Origin: an uncultured Gemmatimonadales bacterium
GTDB lineage: Bacteria > Gemmatimonadota > Gemmatimonadetes > Gemmatimonadales > GWC2-71-9
Assembly (NCBI GenBank): GCA_963810165.1
Contig: CAWEMG010000049.1
Coordinates: 11,366-75,365 of the forward strand
Length of the DNA stretch: 64,000 nt
Reading direction: 5' to 3'
Shown piece by piece: positions 44,955 through 61,092 of the stretch. A program made the translations under genes and the position numbers. The notes under the pieces were generated by a model. It saw only the letters and a list, made by a program, of their open reading frames with translations, did not search any database and was not told where the DNA came from. Each line of letters begins with the position of its first letter. Positions within the stretch are counted from its first letter, which is position 1.

Positions 44955-45036
44955 GCAAAGCGGAACGGCGGAAAGGCGGAAGATCAAGCGCGGTGTCATC
45001 CTTCCGCGATCCGTCCCTCCGCTCGCCGCCTCCGTG
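44955..45036. repeat. GGCGGAAN-octamer imperfect inverted arms
   Basis: GCAAAGCGGAACGGCGGAAAGGCGGAAGATC ... ATCCTTCCGCGATCCGTCCCTCCGCTCGCCGCCTCCGTG. It lies between the susD stop and the GH13 start and is followed by AAACTAGGAGCGAT (RBS module shared with element A). Confidence 0.6.
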
Positions 45037-45059
45037 TGACCGAAACTAGGAGCGATCAC

Positions 45060-46414
45060 ATGCTGAATCGTCTGGCCTGTGCATTCATAGCAATGTCCCT
45101 CACAGCGGCACGGCGCGCGTTCGGGCCAAGCCCCTGCCCTGCCCGACACATCCTGGGTCGCGCGGAGCGCCCTCTACGAGGTGTTCGTCCAGGACTTCTC
45201 GCCCTCGGGCAACTTCCGTGGCCTCATCGATGGGCTGCGATCGCATTCAGGCGTCCGGGGCCAACGTGCTGTGGCTGATGCCGATCTACCCGATCGGCAC
45301 GCTCAACCGGAAGGGAACGCTGGGGTCGCCATATGCGGTGAGAGACTACCGCGCGCATCAACCCCGCGTACGGCAATGCCGCGGACTTCCGGGCGCTGGT
45401 GGAGGCGGTGCATGCGGCGCGGGATGAAGCTCATCCTCGACTGGGTGCCGAACCACACCGCTCCCGACCATGCCTGGGTCAAGCAGCACCCCGACTACTA
45501 CGTCCGGAACGAGCGCGGCGAGCCGAGCGTGCCACGGGATGAGAAGGGAAAGCTGACCGACTGGACCGACGTCGCGCAGCTGGACTACAAGAATCCCGCG
45601 GTCCGGCGCGAGATGATCGCCACCATGCAGCACTGGCTGAAGGAGTTCGGGATCGACGGCTTCCGGGTCGACGTCGCCGGCTTCATCCCGATCGACTTCT
45701 GGCGCGAGGCGGTACCCAAGCATCCGCGCCGCGGTGCCCCGGCGGATCATGCTGCTGGCCGAATGGGGCGACCTGGAGATGCACCGGGCCGGCTTCGACC
45801 TGACCTACGCCTGGGACTCCTACGACCGGCTCAAGGCAGTGTGGCAGGGAGCGCCGGCATCGAGCTTCGTCCAGGGCGAGCTGCCGGACATGAAGGCCAT
45901 GCCCCCGGGCGGGATGCGCATGCGCTTCAGCACCAACCACGACAAGACGGCCTGGGAGGATCCTCCGGTGAAGATCTTCGGTCCCGCAGCCGGAGCGCGG
46001 GCGGCCTTCGTCGCCGTGGCGCTGCTGCCGGGCCGGCCCCTGCTCTACAACGGGCAGGAGGTCGAGAGCCCGCAGAAGCTGCGGCCTGTTCGAGCGCGAC
46101 CCCATCCGGTGGAATCAGCCGCAGGCGAGCCGAGGCCCGAGCATTTTACGCCAAAGTTATCGGGCTGGCGCGGACCGAGCCCTCGCTGCTCGTCGCCGGA
46201 CCTCCGGCCGATCGAGACCAGCGCCCCCAAGGACGTGATCGCGTATCGCCGGGGCGATCTGGTCGTGCTGGTGAACGCCAGGCCACGCGCGGTGAGCTTC
46301 ACCGTGACCGGCTTCGACGTGGATGGCGCGCGTGACCTCCTGTCGAAGAACACGCAACGTGGCGACACCATCTCGCTGCCGGCACATGGGCCGCTGGTCC
46401 TGAAGAAGCCCTAG
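45060..46414 (+). pseudogene. GH13 alpha-amylase-family glycosidase, about 5-6 frame breaks
   Basis: AGGAG lies 7 nt before ATG 45060, with signal-like MLNRLACAFIAMSLTAA. GH13 regions I DWVPNHT, II GFRVDVAGF, III LLAEW, IV FSTNHD, distributed over three frames. Confidence 0.85.
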
Positions 46415-46430: not shown

Positions 46431-46605
46431 ACAAAGCAACTGCGCACCACGGAAGCACGGAAGACACGGAAAAAACACGGAAGAAACAGCATGTTTGCCG
46501 CACCAAAGCTTGGCGCCACAAGTCGTCAGAAAACTATAGGAGCGATGTTGATTCTTCCGTGCAGCTTCCGTGTTTTCCGTGTTTCCGTGGTGGGCCTTTG
46601 TTTTC
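46431..46605. repeat. CACGGAAG-octamer inverted-repeat element, copy A (~175 bp)
   Basis: Left arm ACAAAGCAACTGCGCACCACGGAAGCACGGAAGACACGGAAAAAACACGGAAGAAAC. Right arm GATTCTTCCGTGCAGCTTCCGTGTTTTCCGTGTTTCCGTGGTGGGCCTTTGTTTTC. The ~65-nt loop contains AAACTATAGGAGCGATG. Confidence 0.85.
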
Positions 46606-49034
46606 TCATCACGGCAGCGCCGGCCACCGCGCAGCGGCAGCGCCTCTCCATGGACCCGGGCTGGCGTTTTACGCTTGGCGATCCCGCCGGAGCCGAGCAG
46701 GCCGTCGTTCGATGATCGCCGTTGGCGCTCGCTGGACCTGCCGCATGACTGGAGCATCGAGGGGACTCCGCGGGAAGATGCGCCCGGCGGGGGCCGGGTG
46801 GGCTACTTCCCTGCCGGCATCGGCTGGTACCGCAAGACCTTTCGGTTGCCGTCGGGTGCGCGTGATCGCGACGCGTGGCTCGAGTTCGACGGCGTGTACA
46901 TGAACAGCGACGTCTGGATCAACGGCGTCCACCTCGGCAACCGGCCGTACGGGTACATCAGCTTCGCCTACGACATCACCCGGCACCTGGTGCCGGGCGT
47001 GAACGTGATCGCGGTGCGGGTGGACAACGCGCAGGCAACCCAACTCCCGGTGGTACACCGGCAGCGGCATCTACCGGCACGTCTGGCTGACCCTGGTGGA
47101 CCGGTTGCACGTCGGCCACTGGGGCACCTATGTGACCACACCACGCGTCGATTCCGCCGGGGCCGAGGTGGTGGTCCGTACCCGGGTCGAGAATGGCCAC
47201 CCCAAGGCCCGGAACGGGGTGCTTCGCTCGGTAGTGATGGACAGCGGCGGCCGGGAGGTCGCACGGGCAGACACCTCCTTCACCCTGGCCGCCGGCGCCA
47301 AGATGGAGCTGGAGCAACGCCTCCGGGTCGCATCGCCCGCGGCTGTGGTCGGTGGAGTCACCGACGCTGTATCAGCTCCACTCGGTCGTGCGGGACGGCA
47401 AGCGCGCAGCCGACCGGGCTATCACGACGTTCGGCATTCGCACATCGAGTACCACAAGGATCGCGGCTTTCTGCTCAACGGCCGACAGGTCAAGATGCGG
47501 GGCGTGAACCTGCACCACGAAGCCGGCGGCCTCGGCGCCGCGGTCCCGGAGCAGGTCTGGCGCCGCCGGCTCCAGATCCTGAAGGCGATGGGGGCCAACG
47601 CCATCCGCACCGCCCACAATCCACCTGCGGCTGAGTTCCTCGATCTGTGCGACAGCTGGGCTTCCTGGTCATGGCGGAGGCGTTCGACGAGTGGACCGTC
47701 CCCAAGGTACCGGAGGGATATCACAAGTAGTTCGCCGAGTGGGCCGAGCGAGACGTCACCGATTTCGTCCGGCGGGACCGGAATCACCCTTCGATCGTGC
47801 TGTGGAGCGCGGGCAACGAGATCGGCGAGCAGAGCATGCCCGGCGGAGACCGGGTGCTCCGCCGCCTCGTCGATCATCTTCCACCGTGAGGATCCCACCC
47901 GGCCGGTGACCACCGGCAACGACAAGATCGCCGCCGATAGCACTCCCGCCACGCTCGCGTTCCTCAATGCCCTGGACATCGTGGGCTACAACTACGTGGA
48001 TCGCTGGCACGAGCGCCGGGAGATCTTCGCCACCGAGGACCGGCACCAGCACCCGGAGTGGAAGATGATCGGCACCGAGAGCGGCACCATCTTCCAGTCC
48101 TTCGACGAGCGCTATTCGCTGGGGCCGGATTCGTCGGTCGTCCGTCCCAACTACACTCATGGCATGCTCCAGGCGGAGCGGCTCTGGAAGTGGATCACGC
48201 TGAACGACTACTTTGCCGGCAACTTCATGTGGACCGGGATCGATTACCTCGGCGAGAGCACCTGGCCCTTCAAGGGCTTCCCCTCGGGTGCCATGGACAT
48301 CACCGGCGCTCCCAAGGACATCTACTACCTCTATCAGAGCCTGTGGACCGATCAGCCGGTGCTGCGCCTCTTCCCCCACTGGAACTGGCCCGCCGCACCG
48401 GCCAGGTGATCCCGGTGCTGGCCTACACCAACTGCAACATCGTGGAGCTGTTTCTCAACGGCCGCTCCCTGGGCGAGAAGCGGCTGGAGTTCCCGGCCCA
48501 GGGCACATCCGGCGGCTGGAACAGCTACGCCCAACCACTGGTCAATCCGACCACCACCGACCTGCACCTGAGCTGGGACGTGCCCTATGAGCCGGGCGTG
48601 CTCCGGGCGGTGGGCAAGCGCCGCGACGGAACGGTCGGCATGCCAGGCGGAGACCCGAACAGCTGGCCCGGCGGCGGCCATCCGGCTTGTCCGCGGACCG
48701 GGATACCATCACCACCGGTTCGGGTGACGTCGCGCACGTGACGTTCGAAATCGTGGACTCGGCCGGCACCGTGGTCCCCACCGCGGACAACTCTCGTGAC
48801 CATCACGGCGGCAGGTGGCACCGCCTCTGGTGGTGGACAACGCCGACCTGCTCGACCTCGCTCCATACCGGCCCGACCGCCGGCGTGCGTTCAACGGCCG
48901 AGGGCTGGCGATTCGTGCGAGCCGAGAAGCCGGGTGTGCTACGGGTGAGCGCGAGCGCGGATCGGTTGAGCCCGGCGACCGTGACCGTGCAAGTGGTGCG
49001 AGGTCCGCGGCAATCTGACGCGGGCCGGAGGTGA
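46545..49034 (+). pseudogene. GH2-family glycosidase (beta-galactosidase-like), about 8 frame breaks plus an in-frame TAG at 47728-47730
   Basis: [149 protein letters not shown]. The signal peptide MLILPCSFRVFRVSVVGLCFLITAAPATAQ is encoded by the right arm of element A. Confidence 0.85.
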
Positions 49035-49691: not shown

Positions 49692-49893
49692 AACCGCAAC
49701 TGCGCACCACGGAGACACGGAGAAAGACGGAGCCCGCACGGAGACTGCACGAGATCTCTCCGTGGTAATTCTTTGATGTCTTGTGGGGGTGGGGGTGGGG
49801 CACCTTTTTGGCGAACGAAGATACTAGAGGTACTACTCTGACAAATCCGTGCCATCTCCGTGTCCTCCGTGTCTCCGTGGTGAGCTTTTGCGG
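49692..49893. repeat. CACGGAGA-octamer inverted-repeat element, copy B (~200 bp)
   Basis: Left arm CGCAACTGCGCACCACGGAGACACGGAGAAAGACGGAGCCCGCACGGAGAC. Right arm AATCCGTGCCATCTCCGTGTCCTCCGTGTCTCCGTGGTGAGCTTTTGCGG. The loop contains GTGGGGGTGGGGGTGGGG and ACTAGAGGTACT. Confidence 0.85.
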
Positions 49894-52531
49894 AGTCCTT
49901 CTGCTCGCCTCACTTCTCGTCGCGCGTGACGCTGCGGCGCAGGCACAAGCCGCTGCCGGCTGCACCCGCCAACCGCGCCGTCTACCTGGACAAGGAGGGC
50001 GTCATCCGCTGGCGCGACAATCGGCAGGAGGTCGCCCTCTTCGGCGCGAACTACGTGCTGCCCATCCGCCTCCGACTATCGCGCGGCCGGCTATCTCAAG
50101 GCCGACCGGAAGCGCATGATCGACGAGGACATGGCGCACTTCGCCCGGATGGGCTGGGACGGTCTGCGGCTCACGTTCTGGGGTGACTGGGAGGCCTCCG
50201 ACACCGCCGGCAACCTGATCGCCAACGATCATCTGGACCTGCAGGACTACCTCATCGCCCGCGCGCGCGAGCGCGGGATCTACATGCTCTTCAGCCCGAT
50301 CCAGCTGTACGGCTCCAACTGGCCGGATGCGCTCCAGGACACCACCCAGCCGGGCTTCGGGCGGCACTTCGGCAAGGAGCGGATGGGCACCGACCCGGCC
50401 GCCCTCGCCGCGCAGGTGAACTACCTGCGCCAGATCCTGAAGCACGTGAACCCATATACCGGCGTCGCGCTCAAGGACGAGCCCGCCATCCTCTTCATCG
50501 AGCTGGTCAACGAGCCCTGCGCACCATCCGGAAGACCTGGAAGGCTCGATCCGCTACATCAACGCGCTCACCGAGGCGGTGCGGAGTACCGGGTGCAGGA
50601 AGCCGATCTTCTACAACGTGAGCCAGGACTTCCGGATCTCCGAGGCAATCAGGCGGTCGCGGGTGGATGGCGTGACCTTCGGCTGGTATCCCACCGGGCT
50701 CAACTCGGGCCGCGAGCTGGAAGGCAACTATCTCCGGGGCGTCGATGCCTTCCCCGACATGCTGCGCCGGGAGATCGCGGGCCTGCCGCGCATCGTGTAC
50801 GAGTTCGACACCCCCGACCTGCGCAACAGTACGATGTACCCGGCCATGGCGCGGACCTTTCGTGCGGTGGGCACGCAGATGGCGCTGATGTTCGCCTACG
50901 ACATGCTGCGGACCGCCTCTCGCAACCTCGGCTGGCAGACGCACTACCTGAACCTGGTCTACACGCCGCGGAAGGCCATGAGCGCGATCATCGCCGCCGA
51001 AGCCATGCGCCGCCTGCCTCGGATGCGCTCATACGGGCCGTATCCACGAAACACCCGGTTCGGCGATTTCCGCGTCTCCCACGAGGAGATCTGGGCGAGC
51101 TGGTCGCGCGGGACGCCTTCCTGTATGCCGGCTCCACCCGATCGAAGCCGCCAGATCGTCTCCGCTCTCCGCCGGATCGCCGGCTATGGCTCCTCTCCAG
51201 TACGGTGACCTACGATGGAGAGGGGACATACTTCCTCGACAAGGTGCGTCCGGGTCTGTGGCGACTCGAGGTCTACCCCGACGCCGTGCCCGTCCAGGAT
51301 CCATTCGAGCCGCCGAGTGCCGACAAGATCGTCACCCGTGCGATCCACCGCTCCTGGCCGATGACGGTGGCTCTGCCCGATCTGGGCGATACGTTTACGG
51401 TCCAGCCCGTGACGGCAGGAAACCGGCGCATCGAGCGCGCCGTGGGCGGCCGCGCGGCGGTGGCGCCGGGGGTCTACGTGCTGAGCGCAGCCGGAGCGGT
51501 GGACCAGGCCACGCTGCCGGCGCATATGGGCCATCTCCGCTTCGCGGAGTACCACGCTCCCCTGGCGGATACCCTGCCCCCGGCCGCCGTGCTCCTGGGG
51601 CCGCGCGCGATACCGGCTGGCCGCGATGCACAGCTCCATGCCCGCCTGGTCCACGGAGCTGCCCCAGACTCGTCTGTTCTGTTTATCAGACGGAGGGCCG
51701 ATCCATCATACCGCGGATACCGGATGCGGATGGTCCGGGGCTACGACTACGCCGCCACCATCCCGGCCGCGGAGCTTCGGGAAGGGCCGCATGAGGTGGT
51801 CGTCACCGTCTTCCACGGCAGATCGAGCGTCAGCTTTCCCGGCGGCGCGGCCCAGGCACCTACCGGCTGGAACTATTCCGACCGCAGCGCCTGGCCGGTG
51901 GACGTGACGGGGCCACGAACCCCGCTGCGCTTGTTCGACGCTGCGTTCGACGCCGAGTCGCTTGCGTTCAGCCGCATCGGCGACGCCGGACGCCGGGGGC
52001 TCTTTCAGCTCGGGCTCTCGGAAGACACCGGCAGGCCGGTCTTTCACGTCGCGCTGCCGGCAGATGACAGCGGCCGCGGGCCCAACGGACTACACCGCTT
52101 CATTGGTGATCGCGAGCCGAGTGCGGGCCCGGCAGGAGACCATCGGACCGGCGGAGTCGCTGCGGCTTCGGCTGCGTGGTCTGGGGGCCCGGCAGGTCCT
52201 GCATGTCACCCTGATGGAGGACGACGGCACCAGCTGGAGCGCCCGGGCGACGGTAGACAGTAGCTGGCGCGAGCTCTCGCTCCCGCTCGGCGATTTCACC
52301 ATCGGTCGGGGCGTGCTGCTCCCCCAAGGGTTTCCGGGCGAGTGGAACTACTGGGTCGGGCCGGCGGAAGGCCGCGGCGGTCCCGGGGATCGTCTCCGGC
52401 TCGAGCATCTCGAGCGGCTGCAGCTCTCACTGCGACGCGAGGACGGAGTAGTTGTCGTCCCGGGTGGCTACGGCGTGGAAGTGGAGTGGGTGACGCTGGA
52501 ATTCGGAGACCGGAGGAGCTCGTCGCGCTGA
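49877..52531 (+). pseudogene. Clan GH-A TIM-barrel glycosidase (GH5-like) with a long C-terminal region of unknown function, about 4-5 frame breaks
   Basis: Signal (V)SFCGVLLLASLLVARDAAAQA starts in the right arm of element B. VALFGANYVLP, MAHFARMGWDGLRLTFWGDWE, ILFIELVNEP (acid/base NEP motif), GVTFGWYPTG. The C-terminal ~450 aa has no motif I recognise. Confidence 0.5.
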
Positions 52532-57103: not shown

Positions 57104-58691
57104 ATGGCAACACACGCCGTAACTGCTCCTGCTCTGCCAGTCCGCACGAAGCCGCGACTCACGTTCTGGGAAATCTGGAACATGAGCTTCGGCTTCCTCG
57201 GCATTCAGATCGGCTTCGCCCTCCAGAATGCCAACGTGAGCCGGATCTTCGAGACCCTGGGTGCCAAGGTGGAGAACATCCCCATCCTCTGGATCGCAGC
57301 ACCGGTGACCGGTCTCCTGGTCCAGCCGATCGTCGGCTACATGAGCGATCGGACCTGGAACCGCCTGGGCCGACGGCGGCCTTACTTCCTGGTGGGGGCG
57401 ATCCTGGCGTCGCTCGCGCTGCTGGCGATGCCGAACTCGCCGGCGCTCTGGGTCGCGGCGGGTATGCTCTGGATCATGGATGCGTCGATCAACATCTCCA
57501 TGGAACCGTTTCGCGCCTTCGTGGGCGACAATCTGCCCTCGGAGCAGCGGACCACCGGTTTCGCGATGCAGAGCTTCCTCATCGGCACCGGCGCGGTGGC
57601 GGCCTCGATTCTTCCCTGGCTCCTGACCACGCAGTTCGGGGTGAGCAACGAGGCGCCGCCGCACATGATCCCGGACTCGGTGCGGCTCTCGTTCTACTTC
57701 GGCGCCGCGGTGTTCTTTCTGGCGGTGCTGTGGACGGTGCTGCGCTCGAAGGAGTATGCGCCCGAGGAGATGGCCAGCTTCGCGGAGAACCAGGCGCGGG
57801 AGGGCGTAAGACAGGAGAGTCGAACGGCCGCGGAGTTCAGCGTGAACGGCGGGCGCCAGATCCGCGTGGGGGCGATCCTATTGGTTGTCGGCGTGGTGCT
57901 GAGCGCCTGGCTGGCCCGGGCCGAGATCTACCAGGTGATGATCCTGTCTGCCGGGGTCGCGGCCGTTGGGCGTGCTGCTGATCCTCAGTGGTCTGCTGCA
58001 GCGGGGCGGCCGCTACGACAACGGCTTCGTCACCATCCTGAACGACTTCCAGGACATGCCCCGTACCATGAAGCAGCTGGCCTGGGTCCAGTTCTTCTCC
58101 TGGTTCGCGCTCTTCGCCATGTGGATCTACACCACGCCGGCGGTGACCAGCCATCTCTACGGCACCACCGACGCCAGCTCGGCGCTCTACAACGAGGGCG
58201 CCAACTGGGTCGGGGTGGGTTCGGCGCGTACAACGGCGTCGCGGCCGTGGTCGCCTTCGGAATCCCGATCCTGGCGCGGCGGACCAACCGCAGGATCGCG
58301 CACGCGATCTGTCTGGTCTGCGGCGCCCTCGGGCTGCTATCGATTCTGGTGCTCAACGATCCGCGTCTCCTGCTGGGCTCGATGGTGGGGGTCGGGATCG
58401 CCTGGGCCAGCATCCTCGCCATGCCGTACGCGATCCTGACCGGCTCGCTGCCGCCGTCGAAAATGGGCTACTACATGGGGGTGTTCAATTTCTTCATCGT
58501 GATCCCCCAGATCGTCGCGGCGGCGCTTCTGGGCTTTCTGGTGGGGCGCTTTTTCGGTGGCGAGGCGATCTACGCGCTCGCCATCGGCGGCGGCTCGCTG
58601 CTCCTGGCCGCGGTGCTCACCCTGCGAGTAGAGGACAGGGACGAGCCGGAGACCGGGACGTGGCATCCAGGGTTCCCTCCACCTCGGTCTG
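57104..58691 (+). pseudogene. MFS sugar transporter (SLC45/GPH-like, maltose/sucrose type), 2-3 frame breaks, C-terminus unresolved
   Basis: LTFWEIWNMSFGFLGIQIGFALQNANVSRIFETLGA...QPIVGYMSDRTW.RLGRRRPYFLVG...MEPFRAFVGDNLP. The second half (MKQLAWVQFFSWFALFAMW..., GIAWASILAMPYAIL) is in other frames. The given frame reads through element C to 58915. Confidence 0.8.
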
Positions 58692-58697
58692 ATCATG

Positions 58698-58869
58698 GCA
58701 AAGCAACTGCGCACCACGGAACACGGAAGACGCGGAAGTGCCGGAACTCGGTGGAAGCCGGGAATGCGTCGCGTAACGGAGGTAGACATCCAGTCGGTAT
58801 CAGCCCTTGCCTAGCTGTTCCGTGCGACTTCCGTGTCTTCCGTGTTTCCGTGGTGCGCTTTTGTTTTTG
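58698..58869. repeat. CACGGAAG-octamer inverted-repeat element, copy C (~172 bp)
   Basis: Left arm GCAAAGCAACTGCGCACCACGGAACACGGAAGACGCGGAAGTGCCGGAAC. Right arm CTGTTCCGTGCGACTTCCGTGTCTTCCGTGTTTCCGTGGTGCGCTTTTGTTTTTG. Confidence 0.85.
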
Positions 58870-60519
58870 TTCGCCACGCTGGTCGGCGCGTGTGGCCCCA
58901 GACCCGAGACGATGAAGTCCGTCCCGCCGGTGCGACTGCCTCAGCCACCGACCCGGCCGTGTTCTGGAACAGCGCCACCATCTACTTCCTGCTCACCGAT
59001 CGCTTTTTCAACGGAGACTCGACCAACGACCGCGCCGCGGGCCGCGCGAAGGACGGAGCGGTGCTGCGGAACTTCGAGGGTGGAGACCTCGCCGGCGTGC
59101 TCCAGAAGATCGAGGAGGGATACTTCGACAGCCTGGGCGTGACCGCCATCTGGATGACTCCGTTCGTGGAGCAGATCCACGCAGGGGTCGACGAGGGAAC
59201 CGGGAAGACCTACGGATACCACGGCTACTGGACCCGCGACTGGACCGCCGTGGATCCAGCGCTGGGAACCACAGGACGACCTTCGCGCGGTGGTGGACGC
59301 TGCCCATCGGCATGGCATTCGGGTCCTCATGGACGCAGTGATCAACCACACCGGCCCAGCGACCCCACAGGATCCCGCGTGGCCCGGCGACTGGGTGCGC
59401 ACGGCTCCCAACTGCTCCTACAAGAGCTACGTCACCACGGTGGACTGCACCCTGGTGGCCACGCTTCCCGACATCCGCACCGATCGCGACGCGCCGGTGG
59501 CACTCCCTCCAGCCCTGCTCGAGAAGTGGCAGCAGGAGGGGCGACGGGAGCGCGAAGTGGCGGAGCTCGACGCGTTCTTCGAGCGCACCGGGTACCCGCG
59601 CGCACCGCGCTACTATGTCATCAAATGGCTGACCGATTGGGTGCGCGAGCTCGGCTTCGACGGCTATCGGCTGGACACCGCCAAGCACTTCGAGCCGGCG
59701 GTCAGCGCCGAGCTGAGGCGTGAAGCCGAAGAGGCGCTGAGCGGACTGGAGGCGGACGCATTCGGATCAGGTTCGGGACAGCCTGCCTGTTCTACATGGT
59801 GGGCGAGGTCTACGGTTGGGAGCCGGGCCAGGGCGCGGGAGTACAGCTTCGGCGACCGGACCGTGGACTTCTTCTCCCACGGTTACGACGCCCTCATCAA
59901 CTTTGGCTTCAAGAGCGATACCGCGTCGCTGGATGGTCTCTTCAGCCGGTACTCCGCGATGCTCGACGGCGGGATCACTCCGCGGGGTCAGCATGCTCAA
60001 CTACATCAGCTCTCACGACGACGGATCGCCGTACGATCCCGACCGGAAGGATCCCATCGGCGCCGGGACGCGACTGCTGCTCGCACCAGGGGGCGCTCAG
60101 ATCTACTACGGCGACGAGCTGGCGCGGCCGCTGAGGGTCTCAGGGGCCGAGGGCGATGCGAACCTGCGGTCGTTCATGAACTGGGGAGATCTGGAGCGCC
60201 GGGCCGAGGTTCTACAGCATTGGCGCAAGCTGGGGCGATTCCGTCGGGCCCATCCTGCCGTGGGGGCCGGCGTACATCGCACGCTTCAGGCGAAGCCGTA
60301 CATCTTCAGCCGCACGCTCGAGTCGGGGGGCAAGGTCCGATCGCGTGCTGGTGGCGATGGATCAGGGAAAGGGGGCCAAGACGATCCCGGTGTTTGGCGT
60401 GTTCCCCGATGGCACCAAACTGGTGGACGCATACTCGGGCGTGTAGCCACTGTGTAAGAGACGGGAAGGTTTCGCTTACGACCGGATCCGGCCTGGTACT
60501 GCTCGCTGAGCCACGGTAA
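58822..60519 (+). pseudogene. GH13 alpha-amylase, lipoprotein, about 5 frame breaks
   Basis: GTG 58822 gives (M)RLPCLPCFRGALLFLFATLVGAC (lipobox), encoded by the right arm of element C. FLLTDRFFNGD, GH13 regions I LMDAVINHTG, II GYRLDTAKH, III MVGEVYG, IV NYISSHDD. The end is ...KVSLTTGSGLVLLAEPR*. Confidence 0.85.
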
Positions 60520-61084
60520 AGGCGCACCACGGAAGCACGGAAGACACGGAAGTAGCACGGAAGAACGGACATTACCGCAGAAATCGACTTAATGCCGTGC
60601 GAACAGAGTTGATACGTTGAATTTAATGAGAGAGTCCGGAGGACTCCCATTGCAGGCGCATGTAAGTCAACTGAGCTGATGCGGAATGAATCGGGGACGG
60701 TTTATCACTGATTTTATTTCGACAACTAGGACGTCTTCGATCAGTAGATCAATGACATACCCCTTCGCGAGCTGTATTCCCTTGTATTGCAAGAGGCAAG
60801 ACAACCTCGCTTCGATACGGGATCTCTCGAGCTCGCGACACGGGCATATATCATTGATTCGTTGATCGAGAGACCGGGCCTAATTGACGAGATCAAAGCC
60901 GTCGATGCAAACTCGCTGGCCGTTCGTCTGCATGACTGATGAGCCTACATGCGTCTCACAACAGCTCTCCCATGATCTTCTCGACTGAATTATCAACGTT
61001 CACCTTTTACCGCACGGCATCAAGAGAATCTGCTGTGATCCGTGCCTTCCGTGTCTTCCGTGCTTCCGTGGTGAGCTTTTGCAG
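60516..61084. mobile_element. CACGGAAG-octamer inverted-repeat element, copy D (~570 bp), with a low-GC core carrying a GxxExxY pseudogene; IVS-like cassette
   Basis: Left arm 60516-60568 and right arm 61037-61084 are reverse complements. A nested 10-bp inverted repeat ATGCCGTGCG/CGCACGGCAT lies at 60592-60601 / 61011-61020. The core is ~49% GC by hand count (205/420 over 60601-61020). It sits between two convergent GH13 stops (60519 and 61093). Confidence 0.7.
60572..61003 (-). pseudogene. GxxExxY-family (PD-(D/E)XK nuclease fold) protein remnant
   Basis: Minus-strand hand translation: ...RPGLSINESMIY... / ...LSCLLQYKGIQLAKGYVIDLLIEDVLVVEIKSVINRPRFIPHQLS*LTCACNGSPPDSLIKFNVSTLFARH* / HGIKSISAV. 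This matches the family pattern YKG..L..GY..DLLVE..VIVELK...H.AQL..YL...LLINFNV...GIKR, with in-frame stops and frame breaks. Confidence 0.6.
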
Positions 61085-61092
61085 TTACGGCG

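Follow-up and report, generated by a model that had tools for sequence, protein, structure and literature searches.

The window analyzed here is a stretch of 64,000 nucleotides (nt) from contig CAWEMG010000049.1 of an uncultured Gemmatimonadales bacterium (assembly GCA_963810165.1), a metagenome-assembled genome (MAG) of 2.83 Mb in 60 contigs with 66% G+C that represents a soil genus of this order. A starch-utilization operon, syntenic in the congeneric genomes G008, G050, and G017, fills the 44-62 kb interval (Table 1). Within it, and nowhere else in the MAG, lie four copies (A-D) of an inverted repeat. The right arms of three copies run stop-free into the hydrophobic core and the cleavage site or lipobox of a secreted enzyme, namely a GH2 protein, an 860-residue enzyme, and a GH13 lipoprotein. 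The second of these has no Pfam match; a single motif, ELVNEP, places it provisionally in clan GH-A. We compared these genes with their orthologs in congeneric genomes (coded G002-G069, the window's own genome being entered as G000) and in genomes of a neighboring family.

Right arms as the probable beginning of three export signals

A sequence-only reading of the window had noticed that the arms appear to be translated, and our re-reading confirmed this observation, with coordinates and translations for copies A, B, and C that proved correct. Copy A, which is open in the GH2 frame over its entire length, reads MLILPCSFRVFRVSVV-GLCFLITAAPATAQ and then RQRLSMDPGWRF; copy B reads ..PCHLRVLRVSVV-SFCGVLLLASLLVARDAAAQA, with SVVSFCGVLLLASLLVARDAAAQA from position 49874; and copy C, in a different frame, reads (M)RLPCLPCFRG-ALLFLFATLVGAC, with GTG 58822 opening MRLPCLPCFRGALLFLFATLVGAC. 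The arm terminus accommodates both frames: GTG GTG NGC TTT TG gives VVxFC in the frame of copies A and B (SVV frame), CGT GGT GCG CTT TTG gives RGALL in that of copy C (RG frame), and the arginines contributed by the arms derive from CGT within CCGTG. We rejected open arm frames as evidence per se, as left arms are nearly free of T and neither left-arm units nor the TCCGTG units of right arms can form stops; because of this property, only loops and junctions are informative on frame.

Downstream of the arm, the remainder before the cleavage site comprises 14-16 uncharged residues in GH2 and 10 residues in the GH13 lipoprotein; a start placed at the arm's end or past it would yield 15-16 uncharged residues for GH2 and 10 for GH13. 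Since this is too short and too uncharged for a signal peptide, the start codon should lie in or upstream of the arm. Judged by simple heuristic measures (net charge, uncharged run, and C-terminal motif), the N-termini that include the arm have a net charge of +2, uncharged runs of 13-18 residues, and the ends ATAQ, AAQA, and LVGA/C, in line with Sec and lipoprotein signal peptides. They are similar to most of their element-free counterparts, which have 20-30 residues and a net charge of +1 to +2, except for the clan GH-A protein of G033 with no charged n-part. We conclude that the right arm very probably now encodes the beginning of the export signal in three secreted starch-degrading enzymes.

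Table 1. Features of the operon, the repeat copies, and the predicted signal peptides (window positions; SVV and RG denote the two right-arm reading frames defined in the text)
Feature	Position (strand)	Description
Operon gene order	44-62 kb	alpha-amylase-family GH13 gene, GH2, 860-residue enzyme, GH97, GH77, MFS transporter, second GH13 gene
Copy A	46432-46604	inverted repeat
Copy A left arm	46432-46485 (+)	CAAAGCAACTGCGCACC plus four CACGGAAG-type octamers
Copy A loop	46486-46554 (+)	AGGAG 46538-42, ATG 46545, TTG 46548; earlier in-frame ATG 46491
Copy A right arm	46555-46604 (+)	SVV frame, reads PCSFRVFRVSVVGLC
GH2 signal peptide, predicted	46545-46634 (+)	MLILPCSFRVFRVSVVGLCFLITAAPATAQ; mature protein from RQRLSMDPGWRF
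Extra base relative to relatives	46700-46706 (+)	related contig one nt shorter at 46704, reads GAEQPSFDD; frameshift between signal peptide and GH2 body
Copy B	49692-49894	inverted repeat
Copy B left arm	49692-49746 (+)	CACGGAGA variant
Copy B loop 3' end	49826-49840 (+)	AGAGG, 7-nt spacer, CTG
Copy B right arm	49845-49893 (+)	SVV frame, reads PCHLRVLRVSVVSFC
Clan GH-A enzyme signal peptide, predicted	49838-49945 (+)	(M)TNPCHLRVLRVSVVSFCGVLLLASLLVARDAAAQA; start codon uncertain
Clan GH-A gene frameshifts (two)	about 49946-49966 and 50061 (+)	
Ancestral GH13 start	58660-58692 (+)	GTG 58660, VASRVPS..; MFS stop TGA 58690-92; window one base short relative to G002
Copy C	58699-58867	inverted repeat
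Copy C left arm	about 58697-58747 (+)	directly behind TGATC, past codon 12 of the ancestral lipoprotein signal peptide
Copy C right arm	58818-58867 (+)	RG frame, reads VRLPCLPCFRGALL
GH13 lipoprotein signal peptide, predicted	58822-58893 (+)	MRLPCLPCFRGALLFLFATLVGA/C, GTG 58822 to Cys codon 58891-93
Missing base relative to relatives	58905-58912 (+)	related contig has an additional C after 58909; frameshift between lipobox and GH13 body
Copy D	60512-61085	same arms enclosing a decayed PD-(D/E)XK (PF13366) gene; between convergent GH13 genes, outside any signal peptide

Orthologs with and without the element

Without the element (G017, G033, and five neighboring-family genomes), GH2 begins with an ordinary signal peptide of 25-28 residues, for example MRRSAILLLLGLAALSLSASPAFGQ/RQRLSMDPGW; in G039, no CCGTG repeats are recognizable and the start is coupled to the upstream GH13 gene through a GTGA overlap. 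The arm joins the gene at an identical junction in G000, G008, and G069, 14 codons before the cleavage site and in the SVV frame. The G044 junction differs and is also in the SVV frame: the arm is fused past about codon 7, with the ATG upstream (MERTFRIAPCDSRVSVVRCCVAALLTLSALPSASPAQ) and the frame intact over 854 codons. In G061, the left arm, the loop, and half of the right arm have been lost. Here, an ATG that overlaps the upstream stop (CCATGA) continues AAG GTT CTC CGT GTC TCC GTG GTG AGT TTT TTC, and the product, MKVLRVSVVSFF...AAQ/RQRLSMDPGW, carries a textbook signal peptide (MKVLRVSVVSFFVLAAATPVAAQ) in which residues 3-12 are arm-derived.

A normal signal peptide encoded downstream of the arm, the pattern that would speak against an arm-encoded n-region, was found once, in GH2 of G050. 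The gene's own ATG in this genome (MRVIGALRAFLLVV..) follows 15 nt after the arm, whose frame is broken (46 nt, TGA/TAG), and 54 extra nt that include this ATG separate the arm from the homologous region. The window does not contain the 54 extra nt, so our reading of its GH2 gene stands. In G020, of a neighboring family (L003), a solo array, ACGCACGGACGCACAGACACACGGACGCACGGAAGG, is located about 60 nt upstream of GH2, right before the ribosome-binding site, and the signal peptide is normal.

The clan GH-A gene has ordinary signal peptides in five element-free species, and the arm is fused to it in the SVV frame in G008, G017, G054, and G000. Only the outer termini of the element (GCAACTGCGCAGTTTTTG) are present in G016, where they are read from a GTGA-coupled start as MRQLRSFCVAALVCVPVVSAHGQG (MRQLRSFC..); in G044, the gene has its own ATG behind a solo left arm. 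For a fourth gene of the operon, GH97, the arm is read in the RG frame in G002.

In eight element-free species, the GH13 lipoprotein gene overlaps the 3' end of the MFS gene by about 30 nt, in another frame, and opens with ATG/GTG GCA .. GGT CTG ATC GGC .. (MAPRLSLLGLIGLGALLAGGC), the MFS stop being the TGA within GGTCTGATC. In G000, G061, G069, G050, and G052, the element lies directly behind TGAT(C/T), that is, past codon 12 of the signal peptide; G050, G061, and G069 share the RG frame of the window, and the first right-arm octamer contains an in-frame GTG in G000 (window 58822), G061, and G069 alike. In G069 and G052, the ancestral start and the lipobox are connected by one open frame through the entire element. 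Reduced forms occur in G002, where a scar read in frame from the ancestral start is all that is left (MAPGVPSNLGLIVAKQLRTLLFFGATLAAC), and in G044, whose ancestral ATG is in frame with a solo right arm. In the window, the frame of GTG 58660, allowing for a missing base near 58683, extends through the left arm and loop to TAG 58811-13, 8 nt before GTG 58822. ATG 58695, which immediately precedes the left arm of copy C, was considered for the native start and rejected, the conserved ancestral start being the GTG/ATG GCA.. at 58660.

In these series, orthologs without the element have normal signal peptides, and the homologous part of the proteins begins only where the arm ends. The arm-to-gene frame is kept in all intact orthologs, with segment lengths that are multiples of three; the exception is GH2 of G050 with its own downstream ATG. 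Insertions within open reading frames (ORFs) that keep the frame, in the manner of Rickettsia palindromic elements (RPEs), are thereby found across orthologs. In four cases (GH2 of G061, the clan GH-A gene of G016, and GH13 of G002 and G044), remnants of the element lie inside signal peptides whose starts are unambiguous and translationally coupled. As far as sequence can tell, we regard this within-genus comparison as decisive. It supports the earlier proposals of a start codon inside the arm or upstream of it and of an arm that forms the n-region and the first residues of the h-region, and it favors insertion into 5' ends followed by exaptation.

A genus-wide palindromic repeat family

In each left arm, (C)AAAGCAACTGCGCACC precedes an array of three to five CACGGA[A/G]G octamers, and each right arm is its complement, terminating in TCCGTGGTGNGCTTTTG; the arms are built of tandem CACGGAAG octamers and have the termini CACCACGG / CCGTGGTG. 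Arm complementarity is 80-93% across 40-55 nt, as expected of the terminal inverted repeats of a miniature inverted-repeat transposable element (MITE). Congeneric genomes hold from 0 to about 105 arm termini each, against 0 for the reversed control pattern. The four window copies, these counts, and fold z-scores of -5 to -8 characterize a dispersed palindromic repeat family, which is genus-wide and very uneven in copy number. Differing octamers occur at orthologous sites: the GH13 5' region of G052 (L191) has CTGTCCGC units, yet its terminus, CCGTGGTGCGC, is unchanged, and at the SusD-GH13 spacer, the window (44955-45062) has a hairpin of the GGCGGAA type and G050 (L071, reverse strand, 506-766) a CACGGAAG element. 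The arm at window 49846-49888 matches several short contigs of unrelated soil metagenomes and one soil metatranscriptome (X1), which indicates that related repeats are widespread and possibly transcribed.

The flanks (..GCGC / GCGC..) are themselves palindromic and belong to the inverted repeat. Short palindromic scars are present where other species hold full elements, in G016 (L170, GCAACTGCGCAGTTTTTG) and G002 (L188, GGCAAAGCAACTGCGCACGCTTTTG); they show no clear duplication and could be excision footprints or empty target sites. Gene-bearing copies enclose a PF13366 PD-(D/E)XK ('GxxExxY') gene, the counts of which do not track those of arm termini (105 termini and no gene in G007, 35 and none in G033, and 87 and one in G047), and a role for this nuclease as mobilizer is neither supported nor excluded. 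No related autonomous element with a transposase was identified among the enclosed genes, the only ones looked at, no search having been aimed at transposases (including Y1).

Start codons and the hairpin

Across the genome, about 15% of long ORFs have GGAG/GAGG 4-8 nt before their first ATG, a distance at which the motif is enriched. Copy A offers AGGAG-CG-ATG-TTG, whose ATG and TTG are both in frame, at spacings of 2 and 5 nt, respectively. Beside the Shine-Dalgarno-like AGAGG of copy B, there is no ATG, GTG, or TTG, only CTG 49838; further candidates in frame are TTG 49781, another TTG some 30 nt farther downstream, and GTG 49877/49880. The corresponding loop of the clan GH-A gene of G008 ends in AGAGG-TGCTACG-TTG, placing an in-frame TTG 7 nt past AGAGG, at the position of the CTG in copy B. 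Copy C lacks any Shine-Dalgarno-like motif. The Shine-Dalgarno and start module of the upstream GH13 gene (45045-45062, GAAACTAGGAGCGATCACATGCTGAAT) closely resembles the end of loop A (46531-46550, GAAAACTATAGGAGCGATGTTGATT). The predicted start is a codon recruited from the loop's 3' end or from the first octamer. GH2 would use ATG 46545 or TTG 46548, GH13 would use GTG 58822, and the clan GH-A gene would probably use CTG 49838 or else some other codon in frame.

In predicted RNA folds of the three elements, the stem takes in the start region (-104.5, -109, and -110.6 kcal/mol; z-scores of -8.2, -5.3, and -7.6), which agrees with the suggestion that pairing of the arms would occlude these starts. 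Initiation might escape the stem through a promoter in the loop or through melting of the left arm by ribosomes arriving from the upstream frame. Because several lineages have deleted the hairpin while keeping the arm-derived codons, the stem seems to be a burden rather than a requirement. A regulatory elaboration, in which ribosomes from the upstream cistron or the ancestral start melt the stem and expose the right-arm start and in which the arms are shaped for two compatible frames, strikes us as doubtful. If the coupling were real, expression of each downstream gene of the operon would depend strictly on translation of the preceding one; if the arms were so shaped, the element could colonize the 5' ends of exported-protein genes in spacer-less operons.

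The hairpin could alternatively act purely at the RNA or DNA level, with the arms serving as an untranslated 5' leader and translation starting at the terminal GTG GTG (GH2 and clan GH-A) or the TTG just beyond (GH13), to give short signal peptides without a charged n-region. Such starts are in frame (GTG 46587/46590 and GTG 49877/49880), MVSFCGVLLLASLLVA.. offers a usable uncharged run of 16 residues, the element-free clan GH-A protein of G033 likewise has no charged n-region, and copy B has no canonical start behind its Shine-Dalgarno-like motif. However, the only post-arm start in GH13 leaves a peptide of 10 residues before the Cys, the first post-arm start in GH97 of G002 loses the h-region, and the remnants in G061, G016, G002, and G044 place arm-derived codons downstream of unambiguous starts. 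As this account also leaves the conservation of frame upstream of GTGGTG unexplained, we consider it unlikely.

Frameshifts in the window

In all three genes, the frame is broken just past the signal peptide (near 46704, 49946-50061, and 58909), and GH2 is split into at least four ORFs. None of the public sequencing runs contains the window organism (share ≤0.09), and the check was made with related soil-metagenome contigs of 85-92% identity to the window. These differ from it by exactly one base at 46704, 47031/47033, 50061, and 58909, each time restoring the expected protein. One contig spanning 46579-46811 is gapless over 46579-46703, before the difference at 46704, and thus independently confirms the arm-to-GH2 frame of copy A; another connects the LVGAC lipobox frame with the GH13 body. 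The first shift in the clan GH-A gene (about 49946-49966) is spanned by none of the related contigs. Single-base differences between the window and its relatives were observed at 46704, 47031-47033, 50061, 58683, 58909, 59182, and 59269-59277; where such a difference coincides with a frame break (46704, 50061, 58683, and 58909), it brings back the expected reading.

Such breaks would also be expected if the three genes were pseudogenes, in which the frameshifts are real, the open arm frames are leftovers, and nothing is translated; each gene has at least one frameshift within about 100 nt past the signal peptide. Against this, 1-nt shifts of this type also affect unrelated window genes and other few-large-contig MAGs of the genus (G017 and G050), which fits assembly error, and intact orthologs with the same arm junction exist in G008, G044, G069, and G054. 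We therefore hold decay to be improbable and a minority alternative: the assembly probably has a high indel error rate, and the window frameshifts, 1-nt indels relative to related sequences, are probably its products.

No general link to export

The sequence-only reading had raised a second origin, that the repeat is a portable 5' module for exported proteins, and this found no support. We examined 40 elements, with 80 outward-facing ends, in the copy-rich congeners G007 and G012. None of the 80 ends abuts an h-region, and a single one is found shortly before a gene with a signal peptide, a gene that supplies its own ATG; a general link between the repeat family and signal peptides was rejected on these grounds. 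The sub-family with the window's terminus has about 36 ends, including the window's four, and all of those that abut a signal peptide do so at orthologs of GH2, the clan GH-A gene, GH13, and GH97 of the same operon.

Least probable of all is that the element is a dedicated mobile cassette of Shine-Dalgarno sequence, start codon, and n-region that spreads through its export function: a loop end of the copy B type (AGAGG-N7-YTG-AC) recurs together with the arm at GH2, the clan GH-A gene, and the SusD-GH13 spacer in different species, and two of the three arm frames yield signal-peptide-like residues, but the 80 ends of G007 and G012 and the restriction of abutting cases to four orthologous genes of one operon count against it, as do the several copies that precede genes with a start of their own or separate convergent genes and the lineages that delete the hairpin and keep only a remnant.

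Proposed insertion and exaptation in a spacer-less operon

Building on the observed anatomy, reading frames, ortholog series, and fold energies, we think it quite likely that the element was inserted into signal-peptide codons of a spacer-less operon and was subsequently exapted. A hairpin-forming repeat would have entered the starch-utilization operon in an ancestor of the genus, at a time when the genes of the operon overlapped or abutted their upstream neighbors (ATGA / GTGA overlaps). Because of this arrangement, an insertion behind a stop codon may have been tolerable nowhere but in the 5' end of the next gene, which codes for the signal peptide. GH2, the clan GH-A enzyme, and the GH13 lipoprotein would have taken the right arms of copies A, B, and C, respectively, into their reading frames, the arms giving a positively charged n-region and the first hydrophobic residues; insertion was presumably tolerated because signal peptides are degenerate and two of the three frames of the arm give compatible residues.

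Four observations weigh against this model. The Shine-Dalgarno-spaced position holds only CTG in copy B and in GH2 of G008 and G069; the start regions lie within stems of about -105 to -111 kcal/mol when both arms share one RNA; no sigma-70-like promoter was found in the loops, a result that says little for Gemmatimonadota; and the many 1-nt indels in the assembly make any single window frame weak on its own.

Taken with its relatives, the window provides every stage in the history of a selfish hairpin repeat within one genus, from the empty site through the full insertion and the in-frame whole element to the solo arm and the scar, with signal-peptide coding sequence as the outcome. This suggests why signal-peptide codons are a permissive landing place in operons of overlapping genes. 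Automated gene calling will place the starts of such genes wrongly or label their products non-secreted, and how ribosomes initiate at a start site covered by a stem of about 50 bp is a question that can be put to the test.

Comparison with known systems

MITEs that donate promoters or fuse to ORFs include the Correia, ERIC, BOX, and Anabaena elements (reviewed in PMC10969869). Like these, the repeat appears to be a non-autonomous inverted-repeat element that alters the expression or coding sequence of adjacent genes; unlike them, it has no identified target-site duplication or transposase and no detected promoter in its loop, and the part it would donate is a start codon and a signal-peptide n-region. 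REPINs, the doublets of REP sequences associated with RAYT, are similarly inverted pairs of short repeats that form long hairpins, are mostly intergenic, vary strongly in copy number, and include a gene-carrying version among gene-less ones. In our element, by contrast, the enclosed gene encodes a PD-(D/E)XK protein (PF13366) rather than a Y1 transposase, its count does not track the arm count, and the arms are octamer arrays of about 50 nt.

The closest precedent is provided by the RPEs, palindromic repeats described as lying in frame within protein-coding genes (Ogata et al. 2000, 2002, as summarized in PMC10969869). Both are families of short palindromic repeats that are found in frame within genes, are tolerated there, and are presumed to be translated as part of the host protein. 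RPEs occupy internal surface loops, whereas the insertions described here are restricted to the extreme 5' end, in the signal peptide, where full-hairpin copies cut off the original start and would require a new one inside the element; the arms here are tandem octamers, and the host is a free-living soil member of the Gemmatimonadales. The conversion of selfish DNA into protein-coding sequence by such a route is uncommon but not unprecedented, and the features that set the present case apart from RPEs are its restriction to signal peptides and the new start codon that the element would donate.

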